DNA of 62,932 nucleotides, counting the filler, from Welwitschia mirabilis (Eukaryota), in the NCBI GenBank assembly GCA_051453625.1. It is 6 parts of one record of this genome, joined end to end, with 100 filler letters (N's around TTAATTAATTAA, not from the genome) between each part and the next. Parts side by side here need not be neighbours in the genome. Positions count along the whole stretch, not along the records: positions 40,360 to 47,591 come from JBOZIK010000001.1; positions 47,692 to 54,933 come from JBOZIK010000001.1; 4 more parts are not named here. One strand, given 5' to 3'. The notes beneath the pieces are model-generated. The model was given only the letters and a program-made list of their open reading frames with translations. It did not search any database and was not told the origin of the DNA. Positions within the stretch are counted from its first letter, which is position 1. Each line of letters starts with the position of its first letter. A program made the translations under genes and the position numbers. Positions 1,000 through 60,939 of this stretch are shown in pieces.

Positions 1000-3900
1000 A
1001 GAAAGGAAACAAAAAAATAAAGAAAGTCTTGATTGATATAGGAGCAAGTGTTAATATTATCCTTTGCACATTTGTCAATGACTTGGGTTAGAAAGTAGAA
1101 TTGAGCCTATAAGAATTGTCTTAGAATTAGCAGATACATCATAAAGAAATCTTTAGATATGATTAAAGAATTAGTAATTCAAATAGAAAAACCATTTTAT
1201 TCTATAGATTTACTTGTAATTGAAGTTGAGCATAATAGTAGTTATCCATTACTTCTAGGTATAACTTGTTATGTAATAGCCCATTATATTATTGATACCA
1301 AAATGGGAACAATGGCATGTCACTTAGGAAATAAGAAGACTACAATAAGAGTATCTAATTCAACTAAAAAAGACTTAGATTATGACTTGAATGTTGAAGA
1401 AGAGATTAAACCTAGTTTATTTTTACAACATCATCTATTTGAAGAAAAATATTTAGTTCTTTATAAGCTAACTTTGTTTGATGATCCACTTGAATTAGAC
1501 AACTTAAAAGATTTCAATGATGATCAACTTAATTTTGAGCATTTAGAAATTGATTATCTTAATCAAAGAAGTAGAAAAACTAAAACTGTAAATTTTGGAG
1601 AAGTCTAAGATCTAAGAAAAACTAAGATTTCTTATTTTGAGGGAGATTATCCACTACCACTATCTAGATGACAGTCTAAGATAATAGTTAATTTTGATGA
1701 AAATTTAATAGAAACTAAAAATATGAATTTAAATCTAAAACCTTTACTCAGTGGACTGAAATATATCTTCCTGTGTAACGATCAGAATAAACCTTAATAA
1801 TAAATGAGAATCTTTTCCATCAACAAGAGTCAATTTTAATCTCACTTTAAAATCTAAGGTTAATGCGTTTGCTTGATCCTATAAAGATTTAATAGCCATT
1901 GCTATCTCTATTATTCAATAAAAAATCTACCTTGAAAATAATGGAAAACTTGTTGAACAACCCCAATGTAGACTAAATCTAGCTCTTAAACAAATTGTAA
2001 AAAATGAAATCATTAAATTAATAGATGCTAGAATTATTTATGCTATAACTAATAGTGAATGGATTAGCCCTTTGACGGTAGTACCTAAAAATATAGGAAA
2101 TGAAGGATGTGTATTGATTTTAGAAAAATAAATTAAGTAATTAAGAAAGATCATTATCCTTTACCTTTCCTCAATCAGATACTTGATAGAAACCAAAGAC
2201 ATGTTGTTTATTATTTTCTTGATAGGTATAATGATTACAATCAAGTTTGTATTACTAGTGAGAACTAGGTTAAACTACTTTTACTTCACCTTTTAAAACT
2301 TTTGCTTTTAAATATCTACCTTTTGAACTTTATAATGCTTTTTATACTTTTCAATGTGTAATGATGGGTAATTTTTCTAATATACTAGAGGATTCAATAG
2401 AAATTTTTATGGTGACTTCTCAATCTATGATGAAAGCTTTGAACAAATCTTAGAAAGATTAGAAAAATTCCTTGATAGAGGCATTAATAGTGGACTACAT
2501 TTGAATTGGAAGAAAAGTTTCTTTTTAGTTGATAGTGTAATTTTCTTAGGTCACCACATTTCTAATAAAGGAATTAAGATAGACCTTAAAAAAGTTAGTA
2601 TCATTAAAAATCTAACTCCTTTAACTAATGTAAAATAAGTTTAATCCTTTCTTGGTCATTGTTGTTTTTATCATCACTTTATTTAAGATTATGAAAAAGT
2701 TTGTAAATCTCTTTATTTATTACTTGAGAAAGAAGCTAAATTTGATTGAAATGAATCTTGTCAGCTTGATTTTAATACACTTAAAGATAAAATCTCTTCT
2801 GCTCCTATTGTAACGAGACCTAATTGGAATAAAGATTTTGAGTTAATATCTAATACTGGTAATATCATCATGGGTGGGGTGCTTAGTTAAAAATATGAAA
2901 ATGATTTCAAGTTTATATCTTATTCTAGGAAAACTTTATGTAAAGCTCAAATAAATTAACTAACATAGAAAAAGAAATGTTAGTGATTATCTTTTTCCTT
3001 GATATACTTAGATATTATCTTTTAGGCTTTTATACAAATGTCTATATCGATTATGCAATAATTAAATACTTCATAATCAAGAAATATTCTGATGCTAGAT
3101 CTATTAGATTGATCCTCGTCATGCAAGAATTTAATTGAACCATTATTGATAAAGTAGAAAAGCATAATAGTATAGTCAATTATCTAACACATATTTCTTC
3201 CTATCTTGTTGATATCATGTTTAATGAAATTTTGTATAAATAAATTTTTGCTATATCTTTTACTCATCCTTCTCTTAGGATGCTGATATTGTTAATGATC
3301 TTATTACCATAAAAATACCACAACATTAGACTTATAACCAAAGAAAATCCTTTCTCTATAGAATAGATGATTATGAATGGATAGAACCACATCTTTATCA
3401 TAGGTGTAAAGACCAAATCATGCAAAAATGTATCCCTAAATGGAGAAAAAAATCTGGCATCCTTCATCTTTGTCATGGTAATATTTATAAAGGTCATTTT
3501 AGTGGACAAAAAATAGCTATGAAAATCCTTCACTCTGGTTATTATTGACCTACTCTTTTTTAGGATTCTTTTGATTTTGTTAGAAGGTGTAATTCTTGTT
3601 AATGTTATAGTAGTCTTATTCATTTTCATGAAATGGCCCTTAAACTTATTTTTGAATGTGAATATTTTGATTGTCAAGGAATTGATTTTATAAGACATAT
3701 TAAACCACTTTCTAATGATAAGTACTAGATTTTAGTGCCTTCTAATTACATTACTACATGTGTTGATGCTATTCCTATTTCTATGAATGATGCCTGAACT
3801 ATTCATACTTTTTTAAGAACTCATATTTTTCAATGTTTTCATTTTCCTAGGATTATCATTGGTGATTAAGAAACTCATGTTATTAATTAACTTTTTAGAA

Positions 3901-4515
3901 AACTTCTTTTATTGATTTAAATAGAACATAAAGTAGCTTATGCTTATCATCCACAGACTAATGATCAAGCTAAAAATGCAAATAGAGAGGTTAAGAAAAT
4001 GCTATAAGTACTTATCTCTATTGACACAAAATCTTGGGCTTCTAAGCTTAACAATATTCTTTAGGTTTATTGTACTACTTGCCATAATTCACTTGGTTTT
4101 TCACCTTATGAATTTATATATAGAAAAGTTTGTGTTTTACTTATTGATGTGTGTTATAACTCTTATCGTTCTTCTCATCAACTAAATCTTGTAGACTTTA
4201 ATGAGAATATTAAACATAGATTAGCCCAACTTGATCACCTAGATAAAAAATGTACTCATGCTATACATCATTAATTAATTCACAAATCCCAAGCTAAGAT
4301 TAAACATGATAGAAACTTACTTCATAAAAAGTTTAAACTTGGTCAACTTATCCTTTTATACAATACTAGAGTGCATCTTCTACATAACAAGTCGACCTAT
4401 AAATGGTTATGTCCTTATCTTATAGAGAAATTACATTCTAGTGGCCCTATTAAGATTTTTGACTTAGAAACTAAGGAGATTTAGAAATTTAATGGACAAA
4501 GATTGAAAAATATAT
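1000..4515 (+). pseudogene. Gypsy pol remnant (protease, RT, RNase H, integrase) with many stops and frameshifts
   Basis: LIDIGASVNII at 1029; QPQCRLNLALKQIVKNEIIKLIDARIIYAITNSEWISPLTVVPK ~1958-2090; KKDHYPLPFLNQILDR ~2143; decayed EIFM(D)DFS ~2400; YHPQTNDQA ~3945. Confidence 0.9.
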
Positions 4516-24942: not shown

Positions 24943-25042
24943 NNNNNNNNNNNNNNNNNNNNNNNNNNNNNNNNNNNNNNNNNNNNTTAATTAATTAANN
25001 NNNNNNNNNNNNNNNNNNNNNNNNNNNNNNNNNNNNNNNNNN
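24943..25042. other. Artificial contig spacer (N44-TTAATTAATTAA-N44); also 40260-40359, 47592-47691, 54934-55033, 60734-60833
   Basis: The same 100-bp construct, with stops in all six frames, occurs five times. Confidence 0.97.
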
Positions 25043-40259: not shown

Positions 40260-40359
40260 NNNNNNNNNNNNNNNNNNNNNNNNNNNNNNNNNNNNNNNNN
40301 NNNTTAATTAATTAANNNNNNNNNNNNNNNNNNNNNNNNNNNNNNNNNNNNNNNNNNNN

Positions 40360-41889
40360 CAAATCTTGGCAAGGATTTCTATGCAGGGAGAAAGGGTGTT
40401 GAGAGGAAGGGATGATGCATCAATGAGGGGAAACGACGCACGTTATAGAAGATGAATGCATGGAGAGTGGAAGAAATAAGCTTTGAAAGCTGTGGGTTTA
40501 AGGGAGATTAGAAGGAGCGCAAATCATCTCTCAACATTTGAGATGGAGCTGCATCCGATTGTTTTCATTCCTCTATGTTCAACAATTTTTATCATTCCTT
40601 AAGCTGTTCCTATGCCCATTTTCAATTTTGCAGGTTCTGTGATATATCGTCCATGATTCTTGTTTTTAGGACGGATGCCTCCACGGCCATTGAACATGGA
40701 AGCTTCTTCAAAGAAGGTAGTCTACAATGTCATGTTGGATTCAAAAGGAGTGGGAGATACTACATTGAAGATACAGAAATTGAGAAAAAATCTCTTAAAC
40801 TTGTAAAGTGGTTTGAAGAATTTGCCTGTGAAAGCTATGCTCAATCATTTTGCAATGGGACTGGGAAACATTGGCTTCATAATAAAGATTTTAGAACAGA
40901 GTTGGAAAAGCAACATCTGGAGTTACTTTTGAATATCAATGCCGCTGAGCTTGCTTTGATAGAAGAGAAGACAATGGAGCAAATTCACCGTGTATTTGAA
41001 AGGGAAATGCTGTTTAATGGATTAGAAAAATTTAAATGTCCAGATGTGTTGGCTGCAAGATATAAATCCTATGGATGCTGGCTAAGAGAGTGGATTCATG
41101 TCTATTACATAGGTTTTCTGATAGCTACTATAATTGTATTTGCACTTTCTAAATTTACTTTTGGTTGGTATCAGAAGAGAAGGTTTATCAAGAGAGCCGA
41201 GTAGTTGTATCAGTAGGTTTATGAGGTACTAGAGGAGAAGGCAACGATGAAAAGATTAAAGGGAGATAAAGGAGAACCTTGGGTGATATCTTTTTTGATA
41301 AGGGATTACCTTCTATTACCAACAGAAAGAGAGAACATGGCATTTTGGAAGCAGATAGAGTAATTCATATGGGAAGATACTCTCATTGATCAATATTCCA
41401 AATTGATAAGAGGTGAAACAAGGAATGTGCTCGAATGGCAAGTTGAAGAATCCTTTGCACCCAAGGAAGAGATTCAATAAGGCACATCATAGTATGCCAT
41501 CACTAAATAACAGAGATCAAGTGGAAGGGTTACAGTGTAAATCTAAAGTTGCCAACAGTGAATCATCATGAAACATCCCACATATTGATTTTGTAGGATA
41601 TGAATGGTATAAAAATTTATGAAAATAACTAATGCCCTATTTGAGGAGTGTAAAATTCCCATCATTACATGGTATTCTATATCAAATCCATTTGATCATA
41701 TATTTCTACTTGTAGGCAATTTTGTAAATTTATTGAATACTATTTATAAAGTTGAACAAATGAATAACGAAAGGCAAGTTTTATTTATGCTAAAACAACC
41801 AAAAAAAAATATAAATAAAGAAGAAAAGAAAGATGCATTGGCAAACCAATATATATATATTATAATAATAATAATAATATTTATATACA
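40360..41889 (-). repeat. 3' LTR of Tat element (truncated at contig end)
   Basis: Begins rc TGTATATAAA 1 bp after the PPT; colinear with 49723-51279; homology ends exactly at ...TTTATATACA in both copies. Confidence 0.85.
40692..41571 (+). pseudogene. MAN1: Processed, 5'-truncated copy of inner nuclear membrane protein MAN1 (Man1-Src1 C-terminal domain), copy 1
   Basis: EGSLQCHVGFKRSGRY.IED...CESYAQSFCNGTG..W...KCPDVLAARYK, hydrophobic TM segment, EPWVIS.LIRDYLLLPTER, LIRGETRNVLEWQVE; no introns; 3' UTR then A-rich tract ~41792-41832. Confidence 0.88.
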
Positions 41890-41890
41890 G

Positions 41891-41905
41891 TTTGTCCCCT
41901 TTTTT
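41891..41905 (-). promoter_or_regulatory. Polypurine tract of Tat element
   Basis: rc AAAAAAGGGGACAAA-C-TG. Confidence 0.8.
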
Positions 41906-43560
41906 ATGTGAAGCGAAAGAATTGGCTTTACATTAAAAATTTCACGAGATAAGTGATGGAACAAAATTAGGTATGACTTGAATAAGTGATAAAAATGCAA
42001 TTCGAAGAAAATCTAAACATGTGCATAGAATAGATAATGAGTACAAGATTGGTTAACAATGAAAGATTATGAGTGAGGCAATAAGGAAAATAACAGGAGA
42101 AATATGGATGCTTGACCAAATTAGAAACAAAGCAAACTGATTGTATGAGAGATGAGGGGTGGTGAAGTATAAGATAAATGAAGTAAAATTGATGATTAAG
42201 GAAGAGAATTCGACAAGGAAGTCTGGGTACTAATAGTGATGAATCGACTGAAGAGTGGAAACAGTTTTGAATAAATTTAGAGTAAATGTGAGAGATGACT
42301 CTGGGATAATCAACTGTAAATACTAGGAAAAAAGACTAGGTGGAAATGAACAAATAGAGACATGAAGAAGATTGGTTAAACATCTCTAAATGTTACTTTA
42401 GCAATGCCTACTAGTATAAATCATGCAATTATTCAATGTCGTTAACGACGATTCAATGCTAAATAACACAGAGCATCACGTGATTAGGATAGTAATTATG
42501 ACGATGTACATAGTTATTCTGTGGAGCATCGATGTAATGTCAGGACTATAAATCAATCTGATTGTTGGCTGTAACAGTAAATGAAATCTTGATAACTTAC
42601 CATTCAATGATCAATATATTCTGAACGTTCATGAACTCATCACTTCAGAGTCATGGAAAATCAGTCAATGGAATTTTTAGAAATCATCATCTACCATAAC
42701 GAGGGGAGTGCAACCACTGCCAAAGGCATAAGGATTCGCAAGCCGAAGTCAGATCATGACCAACTGATGCCCCGGTGGAGTTCCCATAGATACCATATCA
42801 CACTACCAAAGGCCCCTCTCAGGAATATTTGCCCCAGTGCGCTTGCAGTAGAACATCATGATTATTATTTTTTTCCTTTTTTTTGGTGAATGATATTGAT
42901 ATTTTACCAATTGACTTGAATTATTTTTTTTTTTGGAACATTAATTGATCATTGGAATGGTAAATCGTAAGATTCACTACTGAAAACAAGCATCAGTTTT
43001 AACACAAATCGATACTAGAACAGAAGAACATGAGGCATCGAATGTCATAGATGTGCGAATGTCTTAGGATTGGGTGAAATCCAATCTTATCACAGTAAAT
43101 ATCCCAAAGTAAGAAAACCACTTTTCTGAAACTTGAATGTGGTCTAACATAGGACCAAACGAAATTGACAATCAAATAAGGAAATGACTCTAACCAAGAA
43201 ACTCTGCTAAGGAGCCATTTAGGTAAAGATAACCCAATTGCTTCTACCATGCCAAGAGTATTATAATGATAATTAATGTAAACTCGGCCGTTGTCCATTA
43301 ACACTAAGCTTTTTCTTAGAATCTGAATTGAAAACTCAACGAAGTTATTCAAAATGCATTTCTTTGCAAGATAAGACTTTGACCATTTGACAATTAACTC
43401 ATTGTAAAGATGTACCCAAACATAATGCAACTAAATGATATAAATTAAGTAATAAAAATTTTATTGACAAGTTCAAAAAGGACTGGATACAAAATAGAAA
43501 CTGAAAACTACATGACAAATTATTGAAAGAAAGAGGATGAGTAGGTGAAACATGCTATCT

Positions 43561-43839
43561 TCAGGTGGAAGGATGGATATGTTGCATAACAAGGTAGCAT
43601 AAAATGATTTGTACAAAAGCACAAGTTATAGAAAAGGACAAATAGGTAGTGTCGTAGTGAGGGTCAACATGGTATATAACATCATCATCTTCATCGTTTT
43701 CGATGGGAGGAGCCTCATAAAATGGAATTTCAATCAAGGAATCTTGGTAAGGAATGGGATAATGTCTGCCAGGTGCAGGAGGTTCAGGAGGATCGTCAAC
43801 ATTTAGCCATGCCAGAAGTTGAAGTTTATGATGACTCAT
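43561..43839 (-). CDS. Small (92 aa) extra ORF downstream of Tat pol; Pro/acidic N-half, hydrophobic C-terminal segment; unknown function
   Basis: Open here; homologous copy at 44647-44924 has one TGA; preceded by pyrimidine tract and CAG. Confidence 0.35.
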   Translation of the reverse strand: MSHHKLQLLAWLNVDDPPEPPAPGRHYPIPYQDSLIEIPFYEAPPIENDEDDDVIYHVDPHYDTTYLSFSITCAFVQIILCYLVMQHIHPST

Positions 43840-45638
43840 GATCTGTAAAACTCAGAGAAAGAAAAATAAACATGAAATCTATATGACACTTAAGAAAATA
43901 TTATCCTAAGTAACCAGTATCTATATAAGTGAATTGCATTTTAGCATGACTAAGATGGTAACAATAAATGCATGAAATAAATAGTTCAAATACCACAGAA
44001 AGATGTAAATTATGAAATTTATTGATAATATGGTCAGAGGTAAAATGAGTTTATTGGTTCTTTGTCTTCAATGCCATTCAGACTTTTGAGCTTGTATGTT
44101 CCTTTATTGAATTTTTGTGATATAACAAATGGTCCTAACAGGTTTGGTTAAAATTTTGAGGTTTTCTAAGTTAAGTTTACCTTTAAGATGAGTTCTTCTA
44201 CATTATATGATCATGGATTGATATAATTATTATATGCTTCACTCACTCATTTTTGGTAGAGTTGCGTATGTTGCAATGATTTTATTCTTTCCTCGTCTAG
44301 AGTTCTAATTGAGCGAGTCGTGCTTCTCTTTCAATGTTGGACAATTCAAGATCTTTAACCAAGGTTCTTAGTCTGGGAATTTGGATTTGAGTTGGCAAAA
44401 TCACCTCGGTACCATAAATTAACTAGAATGGAGTTGTTCCCATAGCACTTTTTACTGACATACAGTAAGCCCATAATGCAAGGGGTAATTTTTCATGTCA
44501 TGATTTGTGATTTTTCTATAATAATTTCTTGAGATAGTTTATGATTNNNNNNNNNNNNNNNNNNNNNNNNNNNNNNNNNNNNNNNNNNNNNNNNNNNNNN
44601 NNNNNNNNNNNNNNNNNNNNNNNNNNNNNNNNNNNNNNNNNNNNNNCAGGTGGAGGGATGGATATGTTGCATAAGAAGGTAGCATAAGATGATTTGTGCA
44701 AAAGCATGAGCTATAGAAAAGGACGAATAGGTGGTGTTATAGCGAGGGTCAACATGATATATAACATCATCATCTTCGTCATCTTCGATAGGAGAAGCCT
44801 CGTGAAGTGGAATGTTAATCAAGGAAGTTTCGTAGGGAATGAAATAACATTTGCCAGGTGTGGGTGGTTTAAGAGGATCATCAACACTTAGTCATGCCAG
44901 ACATTGAAGTATATGGTGACTCATGATCTGTAAAACTCAAACAAAGAGATAAAACGTGAAATCTATATGACACATAAGAAAATGCTATTCTAAGTAACCA
45001 ATAGCTATATAAATGCATCACATTTTCGCATGACTAAGATGGTAACAATAAATGCATGAAACAAACAGTTACCATAGAAAATGCCACAGAAAGATATGGA
45101 TTGTGAAATTTACTGATAATATGGTTGAAGGTAAAATGAGTTTATTGGTTCTTTGTCTTTAAGGTCATCCAGACTTTTGAGTTTGTATGTTTTTTTATCG
45201 AATTTTTGTGATATAACAAATGGTTCTAACTAGTTTGGTGAAAATTTTGAGGTGTTCTTAGTTAAGTTTGCCTTTAAGATGAGTCCGCCTACATTGTATG
45301 ATCATGGATTGATATGCTTATTATATGCTTCACTCACTTATTTTTGATAGAGTTGTGTATGTTGCAGTGCTTTTATTCTTTCCTCATCTAGAGTTTCTAA
45401 CTGAGCGAGTCATGTTTCTCTTTCAATGTTAGATAATTCAAGGTCTTTGACCAAGGTTCTTAGTGTAGGAATTTGGATTTGAGTCGGCAAAATTGCCTTA
45501 GTACCATAAACTAACTAGAATGGAGTTCTTCTTGTAGCACTTTTTACCGAGGTACAGTAAGCTCATAATGCAAGAGGTAATTTTTTATGCCATGATTTGG
45601 GATTTTTCTGTAACAATTTCTTGAGATAATTTATGATC
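43562..45638. repeat. ~1 kb diverged direct duplication (43562-44526 and 44647-45638) of integrase C-terminus plus extra ORF, across an N gap
   Basis: Colinear sequence with scattered substitutions and small indels. Confidence 0.9.
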
Positions 45639-47591
45639 ACTTTATTTGTTGCCTCGGCTTAACCATTCACTTGTGGATAACGCGGGGTCGAGAAGGAATG
45701 TTTTATTCCCAATTTAGTCAAGAAGTTCTTTAACTCGACAGATTTGAATTATGGGTCATTATTGCTAACTATGATATAAGGAGTACCGAATCTAGTGATG
45801 ATGTAATCCATGATAAATTTTTGGATTTGTTTTGTAGTTGTTTGATGCAAAGATACTGCTTCTACTGACTTCGAAAAATATTCTGAGAATATAAGCATGT
45901 CGTTCAGACAAGGTCGGTGTAGTTGGACCAATTAGATCCATACCCCATTTTCTACACATCCAAATAGGATTAGATGGAAAAAGTTCAGTAGGCAGTTGAT
46001 GTATTCTAGATGAAAAGATTTGGCAAGTGTAATATGTTTTTACCATCCTAAAACAATCGTGACTCATGGTTTTCCAGAAGTAACTTGATNNNNNNNNNNN
46101 NNNNNNNNNNNNNNNNNNNNNNNNNNNNNNNNNNNNNNNNNNNNNNNNNNNNNNNNNNNNNNNNNNNNNNNNNNNNNNNNNNNNNNNNNNNNNNNNNNNN
46201 NNNNNNNNNNNNNNNNNNNNNNNNNNNNNNNNNNNNNNNNNNNNNNNNNNNNNNNNNNNNNNNNNNNNNNNNNNNNNNNNNNNNNNNNNNNNNNNNNNNN
46301 NNNNNNNNNNNNNNNNNNNNNNNNNNNNNNNNNNNNNNNNNNNNNNNNNNNNNNNNNNNNNNNNNNNNNNNNNNNNNNNNNNNNNNNNNNNNNNNNNNNN
46401 NNNNNNNNNNNNNNNNNNNNNNNNNNNNNNNNNNNNNNNNNNNNNNNNNNNNNNNNNNNNNNNNNNNNNNNNNNNNNNNNNNNNNNNNNNNNNNNNNNNN
46501 NNNNNNNNNNNNNNNNNNNNNNNNNNNNNNNNNNNNNNNNNNNNNNNNNNNNNNNNNNNNNNNNNNNNNNNNNNNNNNNNNNNNNNNNNNNNNNNNNNNN
46601 NNNNNNNNNNNNNNNNNNNNNNNNNNNNNNNNNNNNNNNNNNNNNNNNNNNNNNNNNNNNNNNNNNNNNNNNNNNNNNNNNNNNNNNNNNNNNNNNNNNN
46701 NNNNNNNNNNNNNNNNNNNNNNNNNNNNNNNNNNNNNNNNNNNNNNNNNNNNNNNNNNNNNNNNNNNNNNNNNNNNNNNNNNNNNNNNNNNNNNNNNNNN
46801 NNNNNNNNNNNNNNNNNNNNNNNNNNNNNNNNNNNNNNNNNNNNNNNNNNNNNNNNNNNNNNNNNNNNNNNNNNNNNNNNNNNNNNNNNNNNNNNNNNNN
46901 NNNNNNNNNNNNNNNNNNNNNNNNNNNNNNNNNNNNNNNNNNNNNNNNNNNNNNNNNNNNNNNNNNNNNNNNNNNNNNNNNNNNNNNNNNNNNNNNNNNN
47001 NNNNNNNNNNNAAATTCCAAGTTGAACTCAGCGAGAATCAATGCCCACTTTGTTAGACGAGTACTTCCAATAGAATATTTAAGTAAACGTTTGAGCAAGT
47101 TCTGGTTATTGATTACAATGGTCTTATTTGTTATCATGTAGTGTCGAAATTTCTGTGAAGTGAAGACTAAGCTCAGACATGCTTTCTCTACTTCGATGTA
47201 ATTTTTCTCATATTGATGAAGTATTCTACTAATATAGTAAATGGGGTGATCTCGGTGTAACTCGTCTCGTTGAAAAATCATTGCACTAAGTGATGATGGT
47301 GTGTATGCAAGGTAAAGATAAAAGGGTTGACCAGGTTTTAGTGGACTTAAGACAGGGGTGGATGTCAAGTATTCTTTAATCTTATCAAAAGCCTTTTGGC
47401 AATTTTTGTACCACTTAAATTGGTTGTCCTTCTTGAGCAAATGCATGAAAGGTTTACATCTATCTGTCAAAGTTGAAATGAATTGACGTATGGCTTGCAG
47501 CCTACCTTGGAGGCTACATAATTGTTTCAAGTTGTGGGGTGATGGCATGTCTGTTATTGCTTTGATTTTTTTTGGATCAATCTCGATTCCT
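45115..47591 (-). pseudogene. Tat-type pol: RT C-terminus, RNase H, integrase (gap inside)
   Basis: LKQLCSLQGRLQAIRQFISTLTDRCKPFMHLLKK...AFDKIKEYLTSTPVL, PIYYISRIL, RLTKWALILAEFNL; WGMDLIGP, ITRFGTPYIIVSNN, PRYPQVNG. Confidence 0.92.
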
Positions 47592-47691
47592 NNNNNNNNN
47601 NNNNNNNNNNNNNNNNNNNNNNNNNNNNNNNNNNNTTAATTAATTAANNNNNNNNNNNNNNNNNNNNNNNNNNNNNNNNNNNNNNNNNNNN

Positions 47692-47963
47692 CATTCATTT
47701 ACGAATTCTTGGTTTTCATCGTATTCTTGTGAGAAGGGGTCTTCAGGGAGAATCTTATTCTCATCACCTAAAATTATTAGTTTCTTAATTGTCAAAGAAC
47801 GAATTCTCTGGGTAGGATGGATGAGATAACCCTCCCAATAACTTCTATAGTCGTTCATGACACGAAGTTTGTCAGGAGTGAGAGTCGAAGGGTGTTTTTG
47901 GACAAGTATCTTGTACTCATCTTCAAAGATGCACACTTGTTTCCCGCAGGTGGACATCGACAT
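47692..47963 (-). pseudogene. Start of first ORF (putative gag) of Tat element
   Basis: Open frame MSMSTCGKQVC... ~100 bp downstream of the PBS, running into the spacer; identity inferred from position only. Confidence 0.45.
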
Positions 47964-48063
47964 TATGGCTGTTATGTGTAACAAGATGGTAGGCGAGTTT
48001 AAATGAAAACAAGTGCGATTTGAATAAAACAATAATGAAACAATAAAGGCCTACATGAGGGCG

Positions 48064-48080
48064 CCCTCCTTCTAGCACCA
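48064..48080 (-). promoter_or_regulatory. Primer-binding site, likely tRNA-Asn
   Basis: Plus strand CCCTCCTTCTAGCACCA, one mismatch to the recalled plant tRNA-Asn 3' end CCCTCCTTCTAGCGCCA; 4 bp from the LTR end. Confidence 0.75.
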
Positions 48081-48084
48081 AATT

Positions 48085-51000
48085 TGTTACGACAAATTTC
48101 TTCGCAATGATTAAATTATTTTTTTTCGATTTATAAAGGAAAAATCTTTAAAATTTCTATACAATGGTTGCACATAAAATGGAGTCATAACCATAGTTAA
48201 TCCAAGAAACTATAGAATAATAAAACACAAAAAAAAAAAAAAAACATAGAAAGATGTAGAAAATTAAGAAAATCAATTTGAAATTCAGTCTCACTAAGAT
48301 TCTAAAAAATTATTTGAATATTTGACTTAAAAATACCATACACCTAATTTTAAAAGTTTAAACTCAAATATTATATATAGAAATAAATTTCATAACGGAA
48401 AACATTATGGATTCAACCATTACCCTAAAATTTATAATTACAAAGAAGATGAGAAGTATGTAAAAATTGGAGATTGTAGAATATGGATTTATAGGTGATC
48501 ANNNNNNNNNNNNNNNNNNNNNNNNNNNNNNNNNNNNNNNNNNNNNNNNNNNNNNNNNNNNNNNNNNNNNNNNNNNNNNNNNNNNNNNNNNNNNNNNNNN
48601 NCTAAAATTTATAATTACAAAGAAGATGAGAAGTATGTAAAAATTGGAGATTGTAGAATATGGATTTATAGGTGATCATAGATAAAATATTTTCTTCGGA
48701 TTCTTTAGAGAAATGTCAAATCTAAACGTGAACGAGAGGTTTTAAGATAGAATATGTTTGAAATTCAACCTTATTAGAATTGTAATGGTCATGTATAATA
48801 GTGCAAGAGTGTTAATCAAATTAAAAAAAAATAAGTGCAAGATTTACATAATAAGGAAACTTGAAATTAAATATTCCATGTCGTTTCTAGTAGGCTGGCA
48901 CTGGCTAACGTCTCTGATCAGTTTCCTTGCCATTGCTCAGTTTTGGGGCTCCGATGTGTTGTCGTTCGCCTCTTGTCACTACTATTTTTGGCCTCTTTTT
49001 CTACTATTTACATCCTTTTGTATGCTCCGTTGTTTACTGTCCTCCATGATCTAGTGTCGCTTGCTTCTATTATTTTGGTCTCTCTCTGATCCTTCCTGTG
49101 ATGCCTTGTGTGTCCTTCTCCGGTGTTCCTATGTATATTTCGCTGCATTCCTGGGCCGTTCTTAGTGTTTCTGTCAATCTGTTCCACTGCCGTGATGTGC
49201 TGTTATGTGAATGCCCCTCTGTGTTGCTGTATCGTTTTTTTTCTTTGTTTCTTTTTTCTCTTTGATTTGGTGTTTCTACCATTTCTCTCCATCTCAGTGT
49301 GTTTTGATCCTTGCTTCCTGTGATGAATGCGTCTCGATGCCTCCTGGCGTTACTGAATGTTCTCCCCTCTACCTGATGCCACTCTAGCATTTTTGCTGTT
49401 CTAGTCTTGGTGTTCTCTAATGCATCGTCCCTGCAATGTTTGCGTCTCTCCGATCTTATATTCATGTCATTCTAATGCCATTGTTCTAAGTGCCTCTCTA
49501 TCCCCTGCGTTCTCTTATTTCCAGTCTCTTCACGTTTTTTTTGTTTTTAATTCTGCTGTTCGCTCTATCTTATGCGGGCGTCCCTATTCCATGCCCATTT
49601 TTGGTGTTTCTGGATTCCTCCTTTTGATGATTCTCCTTTTTTTTTTTTTGTCCACCTGCATTCGTTACACTTTTAATGCCTACGATCTTGTTTTCTTGGA
49701 GATTGGCTCCCCTTCTTCTACCCAAATCTTGGCAAGGATTTCTATGCAGGGAGAAAGGGTGTTGAGAGGAAGGGATGATGCATCAATGAGGGGAAACGAT
49801 GCGCATTGTAGGAAGATGAACGCGTGGAGAGTGGAAGAAATGAGCTTTGAAAGCTGTGGGTTTCAGGGAGATTAGAAGGAGTGCAAATCATCTCTTAACA
49901 TTTGAGATGGAGCTGCATTAGATTGTTTTCATTCCTTTGTGTTCAATAATTTTTATCATTCCTTAAGCTGTTCCTGTGTCCATTTTCAATTTTGCAGGCT
50001 TCGTGATATATCGCCCGTGATTCGTATTTTTAGGACGGATGCCTCCACAGTCGTTGAACATGGAAGCTTCTTTAAAGAAGGCAGTCTACAATGTCATGTT
50101 GGATTCAAAAGGAGTGGGAGATACTGCACTGAAGATACAGAAATGGAGAAAAAATTTCTTAAACTTGCAAAGTGGTTTGAAGAATTTACCTGTGGAAGCT
50201 ATGCTCAGTCATTTTGCAATGGGGCTGGGAAACATTGGTTTCATGATAAAGATTTTAGAACAGAGTTGGAAAAGCAACATCTGGAGTTACTTTTAAATAT
50301 CAATGCCGCTGAGCTTGCTTTGGTAGAAGAGAAGGCAATGGAGTAAATTCACCATGTATTTGAAAGAGAAATGCTATTTAATGGATTAGAAAAATTTAAA
50401 TGTCCAGATGTGTTGGCTGCAAGATATAAATCCTGTGGATGCTGGCTGAGAGAGTGGATTCGTGTCTATTACATAGGTTTTCTAATAGCTACTATAATAG
50501 TATTTGCACTTTCTAAATTTACTTTTGATTGGTATCATAAGAGAAGGTTTATCAAGAGAGCTGAGCAGTTGTATCAGCAGGTTTATGAGGTACTGGAGGA
50601 GAAGGCACAAATGGAAAGATTAAAGGGAGATAAAGGAGAACCTTGGGTGATATCTTCTTTGATAAGGGATTACCTTCTATTACCAACAGAAAGAGAGAAC
50701 ATGACATTTTGGAATCAGATAGAGCAATTCATACAGGAAGATACTCACATTGATCAATATCCCAAATTGATAAGAGGTGAAACAAGGAATGTGCTCGAAT
50801 GGTAAGTTGAAGAATCCTTGCACCCAAGGAAGAGATTCAATAAGGCACATCATAGTATGCCATCACTAAATAACAGAGATCAAGTGGAAGGGTTAGCATA
50901 AATCGAAAGTTGCCAATAGTGGATCATCATGAAACATCCCACATATTGATTTTGTAGGATATAAATGGTGTAAAAATTTATGAAAATAACTAATGCCCTA

Positions 51001-51221
51001 TTTGAGGAGTGTAAAATTCCCATCATTACATGGCATTCTATATCAAATCCATTTGATCATATATTTCTAGTTGTAGGCAATTTTGTAAATTTATTGAATA
51101 CTATTTGTGAAGTTAAACAAATGCATAATTAAAGGTAAGTTTTATTTATGCTAAACCAAAAAAATAAATAAATAAATAAATAAAGAAGAAAAGAAGAAAA
51201 GAAAGATGCATTGGCAAACCA

Positions 51222-51260
<39 letters not shown>

Positions 51261-51279
51261 TTTATAATATTTATATACA
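48085..51279 (-). repeat. 5' LTR of Tat element (~3.0-3.2 kb)
   Basis: rc TGTATATA...GTCGTAACA; PBS on the inner side; 49723-51279 matches the 3' LTR. Confidence 0.82.
50056..50932 (+). pseudogene. MAN1: Processed MAN1 copy 2
   Basis: ORFs 49939-50346 and 50371-50805 are in the same frame, separated by one TAA; RAEQLYQQVYEVLEEKA...EPWVISSLIRDYLLLP...IQEDTHIDQYPKLIRGE. Confidence 0.88.
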
Positions 51280-51899
51280 CTAACTAAACTAAATAAATAA
51301 AATATTTATTAGCTAGATATTAGTGATGCAAATCCATGTAGAAAAAGGAAAAAAATCAATGTACAAAAAGTGTTTATAATGAACCTTAGGATTGTCATGA
51401 AGGAGTACTAGCCTATAAGAGATATTAAGGATAAGACTGCTCCCTTTCTATATATAAATCCAAATATATATGGGTATCCAAAGTTTTATAGTGAATCCCT
51501 TTATCAATTATCCATAATCATCTATTAGTAACCTCAATTACTAAGCATAAAAAACCCTTAATTTCTTCCTACTGTCTTGGTGAGAGCTAAGGGGAGGAAT
51601 AATTTTTATAATATAATGTCATAATAAAAATAAACAATAGACTAATGCAATATTTTAATACTCTGGTAGAATCTTAAGAGTGATCATCATATGGATAATT
51701 TAAATAAACTAGATTACTTGGATATATTAGTTATTCCTTAGTAGATAAAGATTGATGAAGTTCTAAGCTCAAGAATCCCTAGATCTAAGCTTCTAAGTTC
51801 TTACCACTTAGTTTTTAAGTTCTAAGATTTAAAGACCCAATATTCCAAGTTTCAAGCTCTATAAGCATGAGAATGAAAAGGAAGAGAGATGAAAGAAAG

Positions 51900-54800
51900 A
51901 AATGCAATTACATGAAAAAGGAAAAGTATGCCCCCATTTGTTTTTTTAAGAGAGGAGAGTATCTTTATTTATATATAAATAATAGATTAAAGGCATGTAA
52001 TCCAAGATCATAAGATTACATGATTTATCATTAATAAGTAGGATAAGTAATAAATGACATTAGAGTATGAAAAAAAACACTATATTTATACTTCATTTGC
52101 CTAGCTAAGCCGAGTAATTTTTTTCCTTTCATTACTAAAGTTAATTACATGCATCATTTTCTCATGATAGCTCCTTCTTAATTCCTCATAGGCTTTAGGC
52201 ACATTTAATTAATTCAAGACATGTATTAAAATAATATATGCAAAAATTATAAAGCTTTCATGCAACATAATGAGATAAGCCTCTTTAATTATAATAAAAA
52301 AATAATTAATATGTTATAAATCAAGTGCTATTATATATCTTAAGAAGATAAAGATTATAGTGGAGTAAATATAATCATTTATCATTTTTGGTTCTAGGTA
52401 AGAGTGCATGCACTTATTCACATACTCATTTATTTTATAATACATAAAATCTATCAATCATGTAACACAAAAGAAGATGTCTATTCATAATTAGGCATAG
52501 TATATCTATAACATTTACTAATAAATTTAAATAAGTAAATAAAATATCATGTTATGGTATAAATTTATGTAATCCTTAAGTCCTTTAAACATACATGTAA
52601 ATCAAAATACTTGTAGAAAAACACACACTAGTATAGATGCAAGTTAACCCAAATGTTGTAGTCCATTGAAAGCACTAGGCTAAAAGTTAGAGAATTCATT
52701 TCTAAGGGTATGTTGGTGTTTTATCTTTTAATAAATGAAAGTAAATAAATATCAAAATATAATGCAATGATGAATGAAGATGAAATGCAATGGATGAAAT
52801 GTAAATGAGATGAGTTCTATTTTGTCTTATTTCTCTTATCACAAGGACTAGCTCTCTATAATTCAAATTAATTAAGAAGATTTTATCACTTGTTTCTAAT
52901 CAAATAGAATATGGAATAAGGATGTGAAATGGAAATGAAATAGCAATGGAAATATAAACTAAGATAATCACCCTTAACAACGGTTACTTTTATGACCTAA
53001 ATAAATTATAAAATTATCACTAAACTATAATCATCTTAAACGATAAGGGACATAAACAAAATTGTAGTGAAAAGAGTAATTGAATTAATTATAAAACTTT
53101 TACATCCACTTACAACAAAGTAGTAGCATCTTAATGGAGGATACTCAACCCAACACTAAGGTAAAATTCTCTTTGTGGCTACCAGATGAACCTCTTGTTC
53201 TTTAGTCTTCCATCATAAGAACATCAAGTATAAAAGATAAAAATGGAAGTGAAGGAAAGGAAGGGTATTTATAGTTTTACATTCAAGTTTTAAAATCTCA
53301 ACCCTAGAAGTCAGAGAAGAAATCATAGTAGCCCAAATGGGTCCTATAACCTCATTACAAAGATAATTCTTTCCATCATAGAAAATATTTATCATCTTAA
53401 CTATCGTGGAGATAACAATGGGGATGTCACTCCATATCAAAAGGTGGTCCATTAGCTTTAGGCCCCGCAGTTAACTCTGTAACCTCTATCCATATCAACA
53501 GTGCTATCATCTTGCCTATAATGGGGATAACAGNNNNNNNNNNTAGCAAATCCTTCTTTTAAAGTGTGGAGTATTAGAATAAGCCTGAAAAGCCTCCAAA
53601 TATGCTAAGAATTACATTTTTTGGTGATCATCCTATCAGTCCTTCATAATTAGTAGAATTGCATCCAAACCTATATAAATTTCCTATAAAATAATTCAAA
53701 ATACATCATCAAATTTATAAAAATTAACATCACAACATAGCCTCCTACTTAGCATTTTTAGTCTCTAACAAAGTAAGTAATTAATTATATTGCGAGCCAA
53801 TTTGACTAAGATAAATAGAAACTATAAAAATATAATTCAAGTTTAATTTTACCATGTAGGCATAAGTATCAAAAAAAGTTTAACTAACGCAAATACTGAC
53901 ACTTTCCTAAGCCCTCCACTTAAACATATCACCATAGAATGAATGAATGTCATACACATAAAAAAATCATAAAATATAACAACGGTAGCTTAGAAAATGA
54001 TAATGTATATGAATGATGCAAGATAGTGATATTAGACTAATGTGAAAAACTTAAGTAGTACTAGTCTCAAAAGAATGATGCATCTAAATTCATTACTATA
54101 ATCAACAAGGGACAAGGTACAAGAGTAAATATAGTATTCTTTTCTTTTTAGATGATCCAAAAACATAGCTATAAGAAACCTTTATGAGTGTGATACCCTG
54201 CTCCTATAAGATAAAGTCCCTAAATTTTATTCAAATAATAGAAAATCATATCCAAATAACTAATCATAGATATGTATCGTGAAAGCTCAAAGAAATGCAG
54301 TTACATGAAAAAGGAGGAGTATGCCCCCATTTGTTTTTTTAAGAGGAGAGGATCTTTATTTATAGATAAATAATAGATTAAAGGCATGTAGTCCAAGATC
54401 ATAGGATTACATGATTTCTCATTAATAAGTAGGATAAGTAATAAATGACATTAGAGTATGAAAACAAACACTATATTTATACTTCCTTTATCTAGCTAAG
54501 ATCAGTAATTTTTTTCTTTCATTACTAAAGTTAATTACATGCATCATTTTATCATTCTAGCTCCTTCTTAATTCCTCATAGGCTTTAGGCACATTTAATT
54601 AATTCAAGACATGTATTAAAAGAATATATGAATAAATTTTAAAGTTCTCATATGACATAATGAGATAAGCCTCTTTAATTATAATAAAAAATAATTAATA
54701 TGTTATAAATCAAGTGCTATTATATATCTTCAAAAGATAAAGATAATAGTGGAGTAAATATACTCATTTATCATTTTTGGTTCTAGGTAAAAGTGCATGC

Positions 54801-54933
54801 ACTTATTCACATACTCATTTATTTTATAATACAGAGAATCTATCAATCATGTAATACAAAAAAGGAGATGTCTATTCATAATTAGGCATAATATATCTAT
54901 AAAATTTACTAATAAATTTAAATAAGTAAATAA
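51900..54933. repeat. ~640-bp direct repeat (51900-52540 and 54292-54933), probably Athila-like 3' internal sequence
   Basis: Colinear from AATGCA(A/G)TTACATGAAAAAGG to AATAAGTAAAT. Confidence 0.85.
52550..53737 (-). repeat. Athila-like LTR with PPT at 53738-53753
   Basis: rc GCTAAGTAGGAGGCTA-TGTTG resembles the 8493-8514 junction; shares CCACTTACAA...CTTAATGGAGGATACT with ~61461-61500. Left boundary uncertain. Confidence 0.55.
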
Positions 54934-56313
54934 NNNNNNNNNNNNNNNNNNNNNNNNNNNNNNNNNNNNNNNNNNNNTTAATTAATTAANNNNNNNNNNN
55001 NNNNNNNNNNNNNNNNNNNNNNNNNNNNNNNNNAGAGAGACAGAGAGAGAGAGAGAGATAGAGAGAGAATCAAGTTAAAAATAGATGAATTTGACAAAAT
55101 TTATAAGAATAATTTGCATGCGTGAATTATATAACTAGAGAATGAAGAGTTTACTTTGCAGTAGAGATGATGGATAATAATTGAACATTTACTATGGGAT
55201 AATACTAATGAAATTTAGATCACTATTATGTTTTTTAAGAAAACATGTCATAGTCCATACTTATTATAACTAGATTACAAAAGAAACTATATTTCAACAT
55301 TAGCAATCTATCCATAATATATAGATGCTACTAAATAGTAATCCTAAATAAAATATGAAATAGATCATGGTAATCATCTATGATTAGATTGAAAGGAATA
55401 AATGAAAGATAAAAAAGATAATTAGAATATATGTGAGGTATTTAACATACAATGATATGTTTATGATTGAGGGCAAATATTATGTACAAGTTCTTCTAAT
55501 CAATATCCATGTAATTCCTATTGTTCATGATGTTGAATTGATCATTTAATAATACTATAAGTAGATTAAGGAGTTCATATTCTATCAAGCACTAGAAATA
55601 GCTACAACTACTCATAGTAGACATATTTTCTAAATAAAATATTTCATTCCTTGCATGTAGATTATGAATGCCTAATTAATACAAAGTTATTCTTCTACAA
55701 AGTGATAACATTGCAAGAAGTTCTTCTTTTGATTCTTGTAGGTAGTTTAATAATTATGAATATTAATTAATGTAGTTATTCTAATATATACTCTAAAATA
55801 AAAATCTTACTACTTATCTTAACTAACCTAATTAATATGAAGTATCACAAAGTTTTAAATATCTCATGAAATGACTATGTTAATTTTTATAACATATTAA
55901 TTGTATAATTCTTTATTTTATTTTTATTTTTATTTATCTTTTTTGGTTTTAATATATGTGTTCATGTGCACATGTGTGCATGTGGAGGAGTAAGGAATGA
56001 TGTGGGTATTAAATAATACTTCTGTACAATGTTTATTGTAAGTAATATAAAAACATTTTAAGTCCTTATAAAGTTTAAGGAAGAAAAGTCTTAAGTCATA
56101 TGAAAACCTTGGTTGATTTTGCAAGTCTACTTATAAAAAAGCATTATAAAACTCAAGATAAAAAGTCTTTCAACAAAACATTAGGGGGAGGGGATGGGAA
56201 GAAGAGAAAGAGANNNNNNNNNNNNNNNNNNNNNNNNNNNNNNNNNNNNNNNNNNNNNNNNNNNNNNNNNNNNNNNNNNNNNNNNNNNNNNNNNNNNNNN
56301 NNNNNNNNNNNNN

Positions 56314-60733: not shown

Positions 60734-60939
60734 NNNNNNNNNNNNNNNNNNNNNNNNNNNNNNNNNNNNNNNNNNNNTTAATTAATTAANNNNNNNNNNN
60801 NNNNNNNNNNNNNNNNNNNNNNNNNNNNNNNNNCATAAAATAGCAAATTATGGGGCTAGTAGCAATTACATACTACAATTGAACACAATCGGAATAGTCA
60901 ACAAAAACATATGAGCCCACATACAAAATAGCTAATGTT

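Follow-up and report, generated by a model that had tools for sequence, protein, structure and literature searches.

An antisense MAN1 retrocopy in the long terminal repeats of what is likely one old, defective Ty3/gypsy element in Welwitschia mirabilis

The capture of gene fragments by LTR retrotransposons is well known in plants. Maize Bs1 is one example, 425 intact maize elements contain fragments from at least 189 captures, and captures by Sireviruses have also been described in maize (PMC2774510; PMC13317346; bioRxiv 10.1101/777037). In the portions of these sources dealing with the subject, Sirevirus captures prefer 3' exons (64.2%), and it has already been proposed in print that captured fragments yield siRNAs that cross-talk with the donor gene. 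LTRs themselves can be remodelled by foreign sequence. The BARE-2 LTR holds Wis-2 sequence, and long variants of the Veju TRIM exist; the account given there ascribes such changes to aberrant template switching (PMC13317346). The donor family of interest here is MAN1. Plant MAN1, as described for AtMAN1, is an inner nuclear membrane protein with two transmembrane helices and an MSC domain, and has no LEM domain (PMC9980628).

The locus lies in a stretch of 62,932 nucleotides of Welwitschia mirabilis DNA, filler included, which was analysed as a whole and is called the window below. We consider it likely to be a single old and defective Ty3/gypsy LTR element on the minus strand, probably of the Tat clade, which transposed after a MAN1 retrocopy had entered its U3. 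As in the maize Bs1 and Sirevirus captures that have been described, a cellular gene fragment is found inside an LTR retrotransposon and was copied along with it, and the 3' part is favoured. The MAN1 fragment differs in that it sits in the LTR (U3) instead of the internal region, and in antisense, and its host here would be a single decayed Tat-clade gypsy element, not Bs1 or a Sirevirus. Like the BARE-2 and Veju variants, the locus shows foreign sequence that has become part of the LTR in a subgroup and is passed on to both LTRs (PMC13317346). There, the foreign sequence came from other retroelements or from unknown DNA, whereas the donor here is a polyadenylated cellular mRNA, and the antisense orientation of the insert and its A-rich tail speak against a simple switch to a sense mRNA. 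The insert resembles processed pseudogenes made by LINEs in being intron-free and 5'-truncated, with an A-rich tail and neutral decay. It differs from them in that no flanking target-site duplication was found and in that the copy was duplicated as part of an LTR. The locus is an ordinary example of the well-known capture of gene fragments; nothing points to a spreading family or to activity. If our reading is right, it is a textbook illustration of how a host mRNA copy in U3 reaches both LTRs and thereby shows movement after the capture, and a nuclear-envelope gene is added to the many genes that plant LTR retrotransposons have sampled.

The two MAN1-bearing repeats are similar over their assembled length. 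With blastn, 40360-41885 aligns to 49723-51257 at 92.66% identity over 1539 columns. Aligned to the common end with MAFFT, they share 1432 of 1527 ungapped columns (93.8%), with 33 gap columns; the differences comprise 73 transitions and 22 transversions, and the K2P distance is 0.066. Both terminate in TTTATATACA, at 41889 and 51279, with the same final base and unrelated sequence beyond, as the first-pass annotation had stated. Beyond 41889, a single contig holds first a polypurine tract (PPT), AAAAAAGGGGACAAAC (41890-41905, minus strand; 14 of 16 letters are purines), directly upstream of the TG of the 3' LTR, where it had been placed before, and then non-coding sequence adjoining the C-terminus of an integrase. 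Beyond 51279 lies an unrelated, high-copy flank, which starts with CTAAC at 51280.

On the minus strand, a TG...CA unit starts with the TG at 51279 (TG is also found at 41889) and ends with GTAACA at 48085. This complete 5' LTR (48085-51279, minus strand) measures 3195 bp in all, or 3018 bp once a 100-N gap (48502-48601) and an exact 77-bp duplicate at the edges of the gap are discounted, in agreement with the unit of about 3 kb proposed earlier. The 3' LTR is assembled for 1.53 of about 3 kb, namely its first part in element sense (40360-41889, minus strand; 93.8% identical to 49723-51279). Its scaffold ends at 40360, and the part to the left of it, with the outer end, is unassembled. This missing part probably exists, given that all three public DNA runs contain contigs with 87-89% identity to 48851-49636 (X1 record 2, X5 record 11, X7 records 17 and 18) among the 24 pieces listed of about 97,550.

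Four nucleotides past the CA of the LTR, a TGG-start 17-mer, TGGTGCTAGAAGGAGGG (48064-48080, minus strand), resembles a primer-binding site (PBS); tRNA genes were not found in the window. The border is marked by a step in summed word depth near 48082, from 1010 (47887-48081) to 140 (48082-48276) in X1, a pattern that recurs in X5 and X7; such depth is not copy number, and estimates derived from it are orders of magnitude only. The repeat thus behaves as an LTR because its shared end meets the PPT and integrase-bearing sequence in one contig and a foreign flank in the other, and because the TG...CA unit ends at the PBS-like site with a roughly 7-fold change in word depth. In read placement, the junction at 51151-51311 is masked as repeat, and the 5' end of the LTR is without independent read support.

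A reading that dispenses with an LTR altogether was weighed against these observations. According to it, an ordinary MAN1 processed pseudogene lies in a low-copy segment that was duplicated, or mis-assembled beside gypsy fragments, and the likeness to a PPT and a PBS is due to chance. It would account for an apparent LTR far rarer than the adjacent leader, for the fragmentary assembly with its unmerged overlaps, for a PBS that is only a PBS-like motif, for a leader ORF without relatives and for the lack of a visible target-site duplication. Nonetheless, the repeat breaks off at the same base in two independent contigs, one of which continues into PPT plus integrase-bearing sequence and the other into foreign flank, and the termini are TG and CA. 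Moreover, the TGG motif and the depth step both fall at the other end of the unit, and the PBS-proximal 800 bp are multi-copy (6-9 variant contigs per site in X1), as expected of an LTR family. This reading is therefore judged very unlikely.

Whether both LTRs belong to one element depends on the assembly. Artificial 100-bp linkers of the form N44-TTAATTAATTAA-N44 are found at 40260-40359 and 47592-47691, so that 40360-47591 and 47692-54933 are separate, linker-joined scaffolds, with one LTR copy on each. The first of them is partly chimeric, with two 86%-identical versions of the integrase C-terminus on either side of a 100-N gap. Because of these joins and of the two integrase versions, membership of both LTR copies in one element is unproven. 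The same anatomy could come from two different insertions, either two elements or an element and a solo LTR, and at least two members of a MAN1 subfamily would then exist. Besides the linkers and the mixture of two family copies, the presence of four contigs over 50435 in X5 speaks for such a case, and an LTR-LTR divergence of 6% is high, though possible, for a single element. However, in both order and orientation the two scaffolds match a single element exactly: 3' LTR, PPT, integrase, RNase H, leader, PBS, 5' LTR. The scaffolds of the window are not sorted by length, which suggests that some mapping evidence lies behind their order. In addition, the X1 depth of 11-20 over 49057-49836, the unique part of the LTR outside MAN1, corresponds to about 2-3 contig-equivalents, whereas two full elements need at least four LTRs. 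Two insertions are thus a real but rather unlikely alternative. The earlier statement that each contig supports the LTR location by itself holds for the PPT side and the PBS-like side, with the qualification that these contigs are separate scaffolds, one of them partly chimeric. As a lesson for annotation, the scaffold joins here, with artificial linkers, unmerged overlaps and a chimeric integrase, do not deserve trust.

The copy number of the insert was estimated, as an order of magnitude, from the public DNA contigs. The MAN1-bearing part is present in few copies, the PBS-proximal part of the LTR in tens and the adjacent leader in hundreds. In X1, summed word depth is 5-20 over 49057-51201, with single exact contigs at about 5-6, against 52-140 over 48082-48471 and 1010-2465 in the leader. 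A depth of 5-20 fits only the two LTR copies and the parent gene. The MAN1-carrying family suggested by the first-pass annotation thus finds no support, and no amplified family of this kind was seen in the public DNA contigs. A metagenome scan with the parent protein gave 27 pattern matches, none of them confirmed, and a scan with a 30-nt LTR/insert junction gave no match. No further copy of the LTR, the leader or the internal region was found elsewhere in the window. The neighbouring leader outnumbers the LTR by a factor of at least 7, which takes a variant or recombinant LTR to explain.

Each LTR carries an antisense, processed MAN1/MSC fragment, which covers residues 132-404 of the expressed 404-aa parent (P0002), followed by 3' UTR and an A-rich tract. 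The family assignment rests on a Pfam MSC match (PF09402) at 50347-50805 (E 3.5e-9; 37 bits against a cut-off of 29.7), which covers only profile positions 214-334 of 337, and P0002 and three further relatives all carry PF09402. In tblastn, P0002 is 82% identical to 50035-50895 and 74-77% identical to 40626-41568. The donor gene accordingly belongs to the plant MAN1 family; unlike MAN1 genes, the LTR copies are interrupted by stop codons and retain no more of the protein than the second transmembrane helix and the MSC part. The coding homology of the copy in the 5' LTR extends over 50074-50895 (plus strand; parent residues 132 to about 392), and that in the 3' LTR over 40710-41568 (plus strand). 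In the former, sequence like the parent's 3' UTR and the A-rich tract follow at 50896-51204 (plus strand), with 75 bp left to the LTR end, and RNA depth fades in the bin 51007-51201. A-rich tracts after the 3' UTR are found in both copies, at 51156-51204 and 41799-41831 (68-74% A; 68% over 51146-51205). The insert lies 75-130 bp inside the 5' (U3) end of the LTR.

Reads of parent-type RNA overhang at 50074, and the overhang translates to P0002 residues 122-131; the copy is therefore 5'-truncated. Truncation, antisense orientation, A-rich tract and a position in the U3 end had all been noted in the first-pass annotation and are borne out. The same is true, by indirect evidence, of its description of the copy as intronless. 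P0002 residues 132-404 are collinear with 50074-50895 without an intron-sized gap, spliced mRNA reads of the parent are likewise collinear with the copy from 50074 to 50894, and among the matches listed, no RNA overhang occurs between 50074 and 50894. In turn, genomic contigs with the variants of the RNA reads lose their likeness to the left of about 50312-50377 and continue with 328-1816 unlike letters (X1 record 5; X5 records 14 and 15). This points to a parental intron, at one junction, that would be absent from the copy. As for a target-site duplication of the insert, the junction zones share no word of 9 nt or more; one 8-mer was found in one copy and none in the other.

The most likely course of events is that of an element that moved after the capture. 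Reverse transcription of a polyadenylated MAN1 mRNA may have yielded a copy that entered, tail first, the U3 of one LTR in a mother element. During LTR replication, reverse transcription copies U3 into both LTRs. The full-length RNA of the mother, including the U3 of its 3' LTR, would thus have been reverse-transcribed, and strand transfers would have put the insert in both LTRs of a daughter. The daughter integrated into another repeat, the very high-copy sequence seen beyond 51279. Since the insert is present in both LTRs, it should be older than the last reverse transcription, and the earlier claim that the element transposed after capturing the mRNA is upheld to the extent that it follows from this presence. 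Alternatively, the retrocopy could have entered one LTR after integration and been copied to the other by inter-LTR gene conversion or unequal exchange, and no later transposition would be needed. Only about two insert-bearing LTR copies were seen, with no sister element carrying the insert and no evident mother copy, which speaks for such an origin. Conversion of a tract of 1.2-2.2 kb that includes a large insertion is, nonetheless, known to be much rarer than the automatic duplication of U3, and divergence is about equal across the insert and non-insert parts (identities of 92.0%, 94.4% and 94.1% in three segments). Conversion or exchange is thus highly improbable as the source of the second copy.

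After integration, both LTRs decayed neutrally to about 6% divergence and acquired their stops separately. In the 5' LTR, the MAN1 frame is interrupted by two in-frame stops (50344, 50803) and has lost 2 bp near 50895. The copy in the 3' LTR has three, at other places, and a 1-bp frameshift near 41454; each copy is thus frameshifted near its end. The 43 differences between the copies in 735 nt of this frame fall evenly on the codon positions (16/13/14). A truncated MAN1 protein, as once envisaged, finds no support in these frames, and the MAN1-like ORFs should not be annotated as genes.

Expression was assessed with one poly(A) RNA run, in which all reads over the insert have the variants of the parent gene and none of the 238 placed reads is at least 99% identical to the window, so that no match to an LTR copy was obtained. 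The antisense RNA proposed in the first-pass annotation thus finds no support in this run. The insert-bearing LTR, with no amplification and no sign of transcription in the run, is an inert relic today. Transcripts of the element, or of its lost mother, with about 1.1 kb of antisense MAN1 in the 3' U3 might have paired with MAN1 mRNA or fed siRNAs, in the past or by way of small RNAs, but we give this idea hardly any credence. If it were true, a retrotransposon would hold down a protein of the inner nuclear membrane that has ties to the organisation of perinuclear chromatin, which would amount to a counter-defence of a transposable element. Beyond annotation, the locus has little import: the insert is pseudogenised, low-copy and unseen in RNA in the one poly(A) run, and both capture and possible siRNA cross-talk are already in the literature.

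The internal region of the element is incomplete. An open stretch of 193 aa at 47012-47590 (minus strand) holds the end of the reverse transcriptase and the RNase H (Pfam RT_RNaseH_2, E 2.2e-24). The C-terminal part of the integrase lies at 44067-44546 (minus strand), in one contig with the PPT and the MAN1-bearing LTR (tblastn, P0066 residues 1360-1510, E 2e-20). A second contig, 44647-46089 (minus strand), contains integrase sequence with frameshifts and stops; as 43562-44546 recurs in its first 990 bp with 86% identity, it comes from another family copy or a real tandem duplication. The 990-bp direct repeats (43562-45637) were also considered as LTRs of a nested element and rejected, as neither is bounded by TG/CA and each matches the C-terminal part of the P0066 integrase. 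On the minus strand, RNase H (47590-47012) precedes integrase (46043-45167 and 44509-44067), which gives the domain order RT-RH-INT by relying on scaffolding across gaps. The earlier placement of these domains between the LTRs in matching orientation is therefore right for the minus-strand orientation of RNase H and integrase, while their position between the LTRs depends on scaffolding, because of the artificial linkers and the partly chimeric scaffold. The gag-protease region is absent from the assembled sequence and would fall between the scaffolds.

The lineage of the element is probably the Tat clade of Ty3/gypsy, within which Ogre and Retand are indistinguishable here. Tat elements are marked by a second, archaeal-type RNase H (aRH) between RH and INT, and a long non-coding stretch from integrase to PPT is common in the Athila/Tat superclade, according to the sections of PMC6317226 on these lineages. 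RT_RNaseH followed by RVT_3 was found in three of the four nearest polyprotein relatives scanned, and these relatives share the order RH, aRH, INT with the Tat clade (PMC6317226). In the element itself, the place of aRH falls inside a 922-N gap (46090-47011). The former label Tat/Ogre is thus supported in part, as probable Tat on account of the relatives. Like the Tat elements (Ogre/Retand) described from angiosperms, this one has long LTRs and a long non-coding stretch, of about 2.1 kb, between integrase and PPT (41906-44066, minus strand; PMC6317226). The leader downstream of the PBS-like motif (47692-48063, minus strand) is present in very high copy in the public DNA runs and contains a 119-aa open frame. 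Ogre elements are characterised by an intron between the GAG-PROT and RT ORFs, by an extra ORF on the 5' side, which often has a plant mobile domain, and by a PBS type of their own. The 119-aa frame has no Pfam match, be it to a domain of such an extra ORF or to any other; none of 62 homologue candidates passed, and the top score in the ESM Atlas (0.84) was uninformative. Among eight further ORFs from the LTR and the internal region, no Pfam match rose above the cut-off, the best being Integrase_H2C2 with 15.4 bits against 25.5, and Rfam returned only a chance match to mir-787 (E 0.99) over 40360-53533.

Sequence beside the insert was examined as well. The letters just upstream of 50074 were considered as a retained parental intron or an upstream exon and rejected, since the parent RNA overhangs differ from them and RNA depth is zero on 49642-49836. 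A homologue search with a 40-aa minus-strand ORF over a 66-nt block beside the truncation point (50007-50072) gave no candidate, and thus no second captured coding fragment. RNA reads that match this block run out into different sequence to its left and right (loose ends at 50007, 49983 and 50072), and a third locus matches 49671-49996 (X5 record 12). To judge from these matches, the block and the third locus show U3 to be a patchwork, incompletely explained; indeed, the outer 2.2 kb or so of the LTR look lineage-specific.

The locus is most simply explained by one old gypsy element, probably of the Tat clade, that lies on the minus strand and has a polyadenylated MAN1 retrocopy in its LTR. 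The window contains 19 N runs. Five of its joins are identical, with the structure N44-TTAATTAATTAA-N44 (44 N, a six-frame stop linker, 44 N), and are located at 24943-25042, 40260-40359, 47592-47691, 54934-55033 and 60734-60833. These are artificial joins between scaffolds. The window is a scaffold concatenation, and neighbourhood across the join points therefore gives no physical evidence. Consequently, the MAN1/LTR finding spans two scaffolds, S_b (40360-47591, internal gaps 44547-44646 and 46090-47011) and S_c (47692-54933, gaps 48502-48601 and 53534-53543). As the scaffold lengths (15217, 7232, 7242, 5700) are unsorted, their order probably reflects some mapping evidence, with adjacency unproven. 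The gap 48502-48601 is spurious, since the 77-bp exact duplicate on either side of it (48425-48501 and 48602-48678) is an unmerged contig overlap.

The two LTR copies are 92.66% identical over 1539 columns (blastn, 40360-41885 vs 49723-51257). Aligned to their common end (MAFFT), they differ at 95 of 1527 ungapped columns (73 transitions, 22 transversions; K2P 0.066), and 33 further columns contain gaps. With this distance and the common plant substitution rates of ~0.7-1.3e-8 per site per year, the insertion of the element dates back roughly 2.5-5 million years. Both copies end in ...TTTATATACA, at 41889 and 51279, and diverge completely beyond. Past 41889 on the minus strand, a polypurine tract (PPT) of 16 nt (41890-41905, 14/16 purines) stands directly before the TG of the repeat. 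The S_c repeat extends down to ...GTAACA at 48085 (minus strand), and a PBS-like 17-mer starting with TGG is found four bases further on that strand (48080-48064). The unit 48085-51279 measures 3195 bp as assembled, and 3018 bp net because of the 100-N gap and the duplicate inside it. The first-pass annotation had described a repeat pair with an identical end, a PPT, a TG...CA-type unit and an adjoining PBS-like motif, and this description is correct. The location of the insert-bearing repeat in an LTR is supported as well. In the first S_b contig (40360-44546) alone, the MAN1-bearing repeat and the PPT are connected to an integrase C-terminus across 2.1 kb of non-coding sequence, and a sharp step in the word depth of the public DNA run X1 at ~48082 coincides with the proposed LTR/PBS border. 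In view of both, it is very unlikely that the repeat is not an LTR at all.

As for the coding part, Pfam identified RT_RNaseH_2 and RT_RNaseH (E 2.2e-24) in an open 193-aa stretch at 47590-47012 (minus strand). A full HMMER scan of 1.84 billion representatives returned 44,614 matches to this RT-RH fragment at E <=0.001, the best being 40-50% identical. Nine polyproteins from the HMMER list were compared with the window by tblastn. The integrase was found at 46043-45167 and again at 44509-44067 (residues 1360-1510 of the relative P0066, E 2e-20). A 990-bp direct repeat, 86% identical (43562-44546 and 44647-45637), flanks a 100-N gap; since both halves align to the same part of P0066, it holds the integrase C-terminus and downstream sequence twice. 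The two S_b contigs come from two different family copies or, less probably, from a real tandem duplication, and S_b is thus partly chimeric. Linkage within the contig 40360-44546 stays solid despite the chimeric scaffold. Of the arrangement proposed earlier, with RT, RH and INT between the LTRs, the presence and minus-strand orientation of RT-RH and integrase hold, while their order between the LTRs relies on scaffolding. The element is dead, as its integrase frames contain stops and frameshifts.

RT_RNaseH is followed by RVT_3 in 3/4 close relatives (P0066, P0151 and P0051; Pfam). Among these three, rve was seen in P0066 only, at 20.9 bits, below the Pfam cut-off of 32.6. The Tat clade is marked by an additional RNase H of archaeal type (aRH), which sits between RH and INT in the angiosperm Ogre and Retand subclades (Neumann et al. 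2019, PMC6317226). Because the corresponding position in the window falls inside the 922-N gap, the element is only likely to belong to the Tat clade, and Ogre and Retand are indistinguishable. P0151 and P0051 also have a G-patch domain match upstream of RT (E 1e-6 and 1.4e-5), an additional domain that is unusual in retrotransposon polyproteins. Elsewhere in the window, at 1931-4478 (+), lies another Ty3/gypsy element with RT, RNase H and integrase, unrelated to this one and ~24-35% identical to the same polyprotein relatives.

The MSC domain (PF09402) of the insert is detected at 50347-50805 (E 3.5e-9, 37 bits vs a cut-off of 29.7; Pfam). A word-indexed search with the S_c copy, its TAA read as Q, gave 4 matches among 334 candidates, with PF09402 in 4/4. 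The best was P0002, a 404-aa transcriptome protein (81% identity). In tblastn, P0002 is 82% identical to 50035-50895 and 74-77% identical to 40626-41468 and 41440-41568; real likeness begins at its residue 132 (K), i.e., at 50074 in S_c and 40710 in S_b. Plant MAN1 proteins are described as having two transmembrane helices and an MSC domain, without a LEM domain (PMC9980628). Of these features, the LTR copies retain the MSC part and the second helix. Thirteen residues of that helix, present in both LTR copies (50497-50535 and 41133-41171) and in the protein P0003, are missing from P0002, which may represent a splice isoform of the parent. In both copies, the 3'UTR is followed by an A-rich tract (51156-51204 and 41799-41831, 68-74% A), 75 bp (S_c) and 58 bp (S_b) from the LTR end. 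The fragment reads along the plus strand and is therefore antisense to the minus-strand element; within the LTR it is located at the putative U3 end.

Both copies are pseudogenes. The MAN1 frame is interrupted in S_c by in-frame stops at 50344 and 50803, with a 2-bp deletion close to the end, and in S_b by three in-frame stops at other positions, with a 1-bp insertion. The copies differ at 43 sites in 735 coding nt, and the decay is neutral since the differences are spread 16/13/14 over the codon positions. The suggested truncated MAN1 protein is therefore not supported.

Logan contigs of three public DNA runs (X1 and X7, labelled organism A; X5, labelled organism B) and raw reads of the poly(A) RNA run X17 (organism A, ~25% read) were placed on 47692-53533 at a likeness of >=85%. 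Of 238 placed RNA reads, 0 were >=99% identical, 51 were at 95-99%, 129 at 90-95% and 58 below 90%. Within the insert, every RNA read has the other letter at the variant sites listed, except at 50435 (0/23). At 50344-50345, T>C and A>G occur in 6/6 and 9/9 reads, giving CGA (Arg) as in P0002, where S_c has TAA and S_b CAA. The parent gene is thus expressed, and no LTR-copy transcripts were seen in this single tissue and library, which looks unstranded with strand unreadable. These reads do not support antisense RNA from the LTR copy, another suggestion of the first-pass annotation.

The same data bear on the processed nature of the copy. Eleven RNA reads overhang at 50074, and their consensus translates to CLPCPENGIC, residues 122-131 of P0002. 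The parental mRNA therefore extends upstream of 50074 and the copy does not, which bears out the proposed 5' truncation. A 2089-bp X1 contig (record 5, depth 3.83) fits the window over 50377-50649 only, the rest being unlike; ten variant sites at 50467-50619 with a uniform other RNA letter each have depth 3.83 in one X1 contig. X5 records 14 and 15 lose their likeness to the left of 50312 and 50349, for 328 and 368 letters respectively. Among the best-supported 24 of ~4,520 loose ends, no RNA overhangs were found between 50074 and 50894. Taken together, this points indirectly to a parental intron near 50312-50377 that is absent from the copy, so that intron loss, as claimed earlier, is indicated for one junction only.

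The genomic RNA of an LTR element includes the U3 of the 3' LTR, which reverse transcription places at both ends of the new copy (PMC13317346). As the insert is in both LTRs, the capture came before the reverse transcription from which this element copy arose, and the view that the element transposed after capture is supported. Two separate insertions, each with one of the two insert-bearing copies, are improbable; inter-LTR conversion, which would spread it from one LTR to the other, is scarcely credible. In the single-capture reading, the antisense retrocopy would have entered the LTR ~75-130 bp inside its 5' end, by DNA-level retro-insertion of MAN1 mRNA into a mother element. The antisense orientation and A-rich tail favour this route and speak against template switching onto sense mRNA. 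We infer the step, since a target-site duplication was looked for at the insert's flanks and not found.

Ever since Bs1, plant LTR retrotransposons have been known to capture gene fragments, and such capture is common. In maize, 425 intact elements hold fragments from at least 189 captures (PMC2774510), and large sets are reported in rice and sorghum (PMC13317346, PMC3726574). Sireviruses prefer 3' exons, and the cross-talk of captured fragments with their donor genes through siRNAs has already been analysed (bioRxiv 10.1101/777037). LTR remodelling by foreign sequence is recorded for BARE-2 and Veju (PMC13317346). A full-text literature search, judged by title and abstract, turned up no estimate of the share of captures located within LTRs. 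The present case, an inert copy, is of the same known kind and adds a MAN1 donor and an antisense placement within the LTR, which are mildly unusual.

Regarding copy level, word depth is not a copy number and was used for orders of magnitude only. In X1, the summed depth is 2465 at 47692-47886 and 1010 at 47887-48081 (both leader), 140 at 48082-48276, 52 at 48277-48471, 73 at 48667-48861, 26 at 48862-49056, 5-20 in every bin from 49057 to 51201, and hundreds to 34,000 in the flank past 51280. The profile is alike in X5 and X7. By order of magnitude, this corresponds to hundreds for the leader, tens for the PBS-proximal 0.8 kb of the LTR and a few for the outer 2.2 kb including MAN1. Exact-match contigs of the locus have depth ~5-6 (X1 records 1, 3, 4 and 6). 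The low level fits a single element with its two LTRs, together with the parent gene, and the MAN1-carrying family once envisaged is not evident from word depth in X1, X5 and X7. At 48396-48952, most contigs differ from the window (e.g., 9 contigs at 48679 in X1), the pattern expected of a small LTR family. Among the 24 of ~97,550 pieces listed, 3/3 DNA runs have contigs that match 48851-49636 at 87-89% identity (X1 record 2, X5 record 11, X7 records 17 and 18), and X7 record 20 (92%) spans the point where S_b begins; the unassembled half of the second LTR probably exists. Read placement masked the junction 51151-51311 as repeat, so the read-level data bear on the LTR apart from its 5' end.

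The outer LTR looks like a patchwork in which MAN1 is the sole identified piece. RNA reads (58, 32 and 10 at three ends) cover only 50007-50072 or 49983-50072 and run on at either side into different sequence; the former is a 66-nt block beside the MAN1 truncation point, and no protein relative was found for the 40-aa minus-strand frame over it. A 638-bp contig (X5 record 12) is 88% identical to 49671-49996 only and unlike the window on both sides, which makes it a third locus with this LTR segment. The element is itself embedded in a different abundant repeat. Its very high-copy flank contains a 93%-identical 650-bp repeat (51890-52542 and 54280-54933), and word depth reaches ~45,000 at 51982-53346 in the public runs. 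X5 contigs (organism B) match 49007-49330 and 49322-49635 with 0 differences over 324 and 314 bp, and both organism labels seem to share the insertion.
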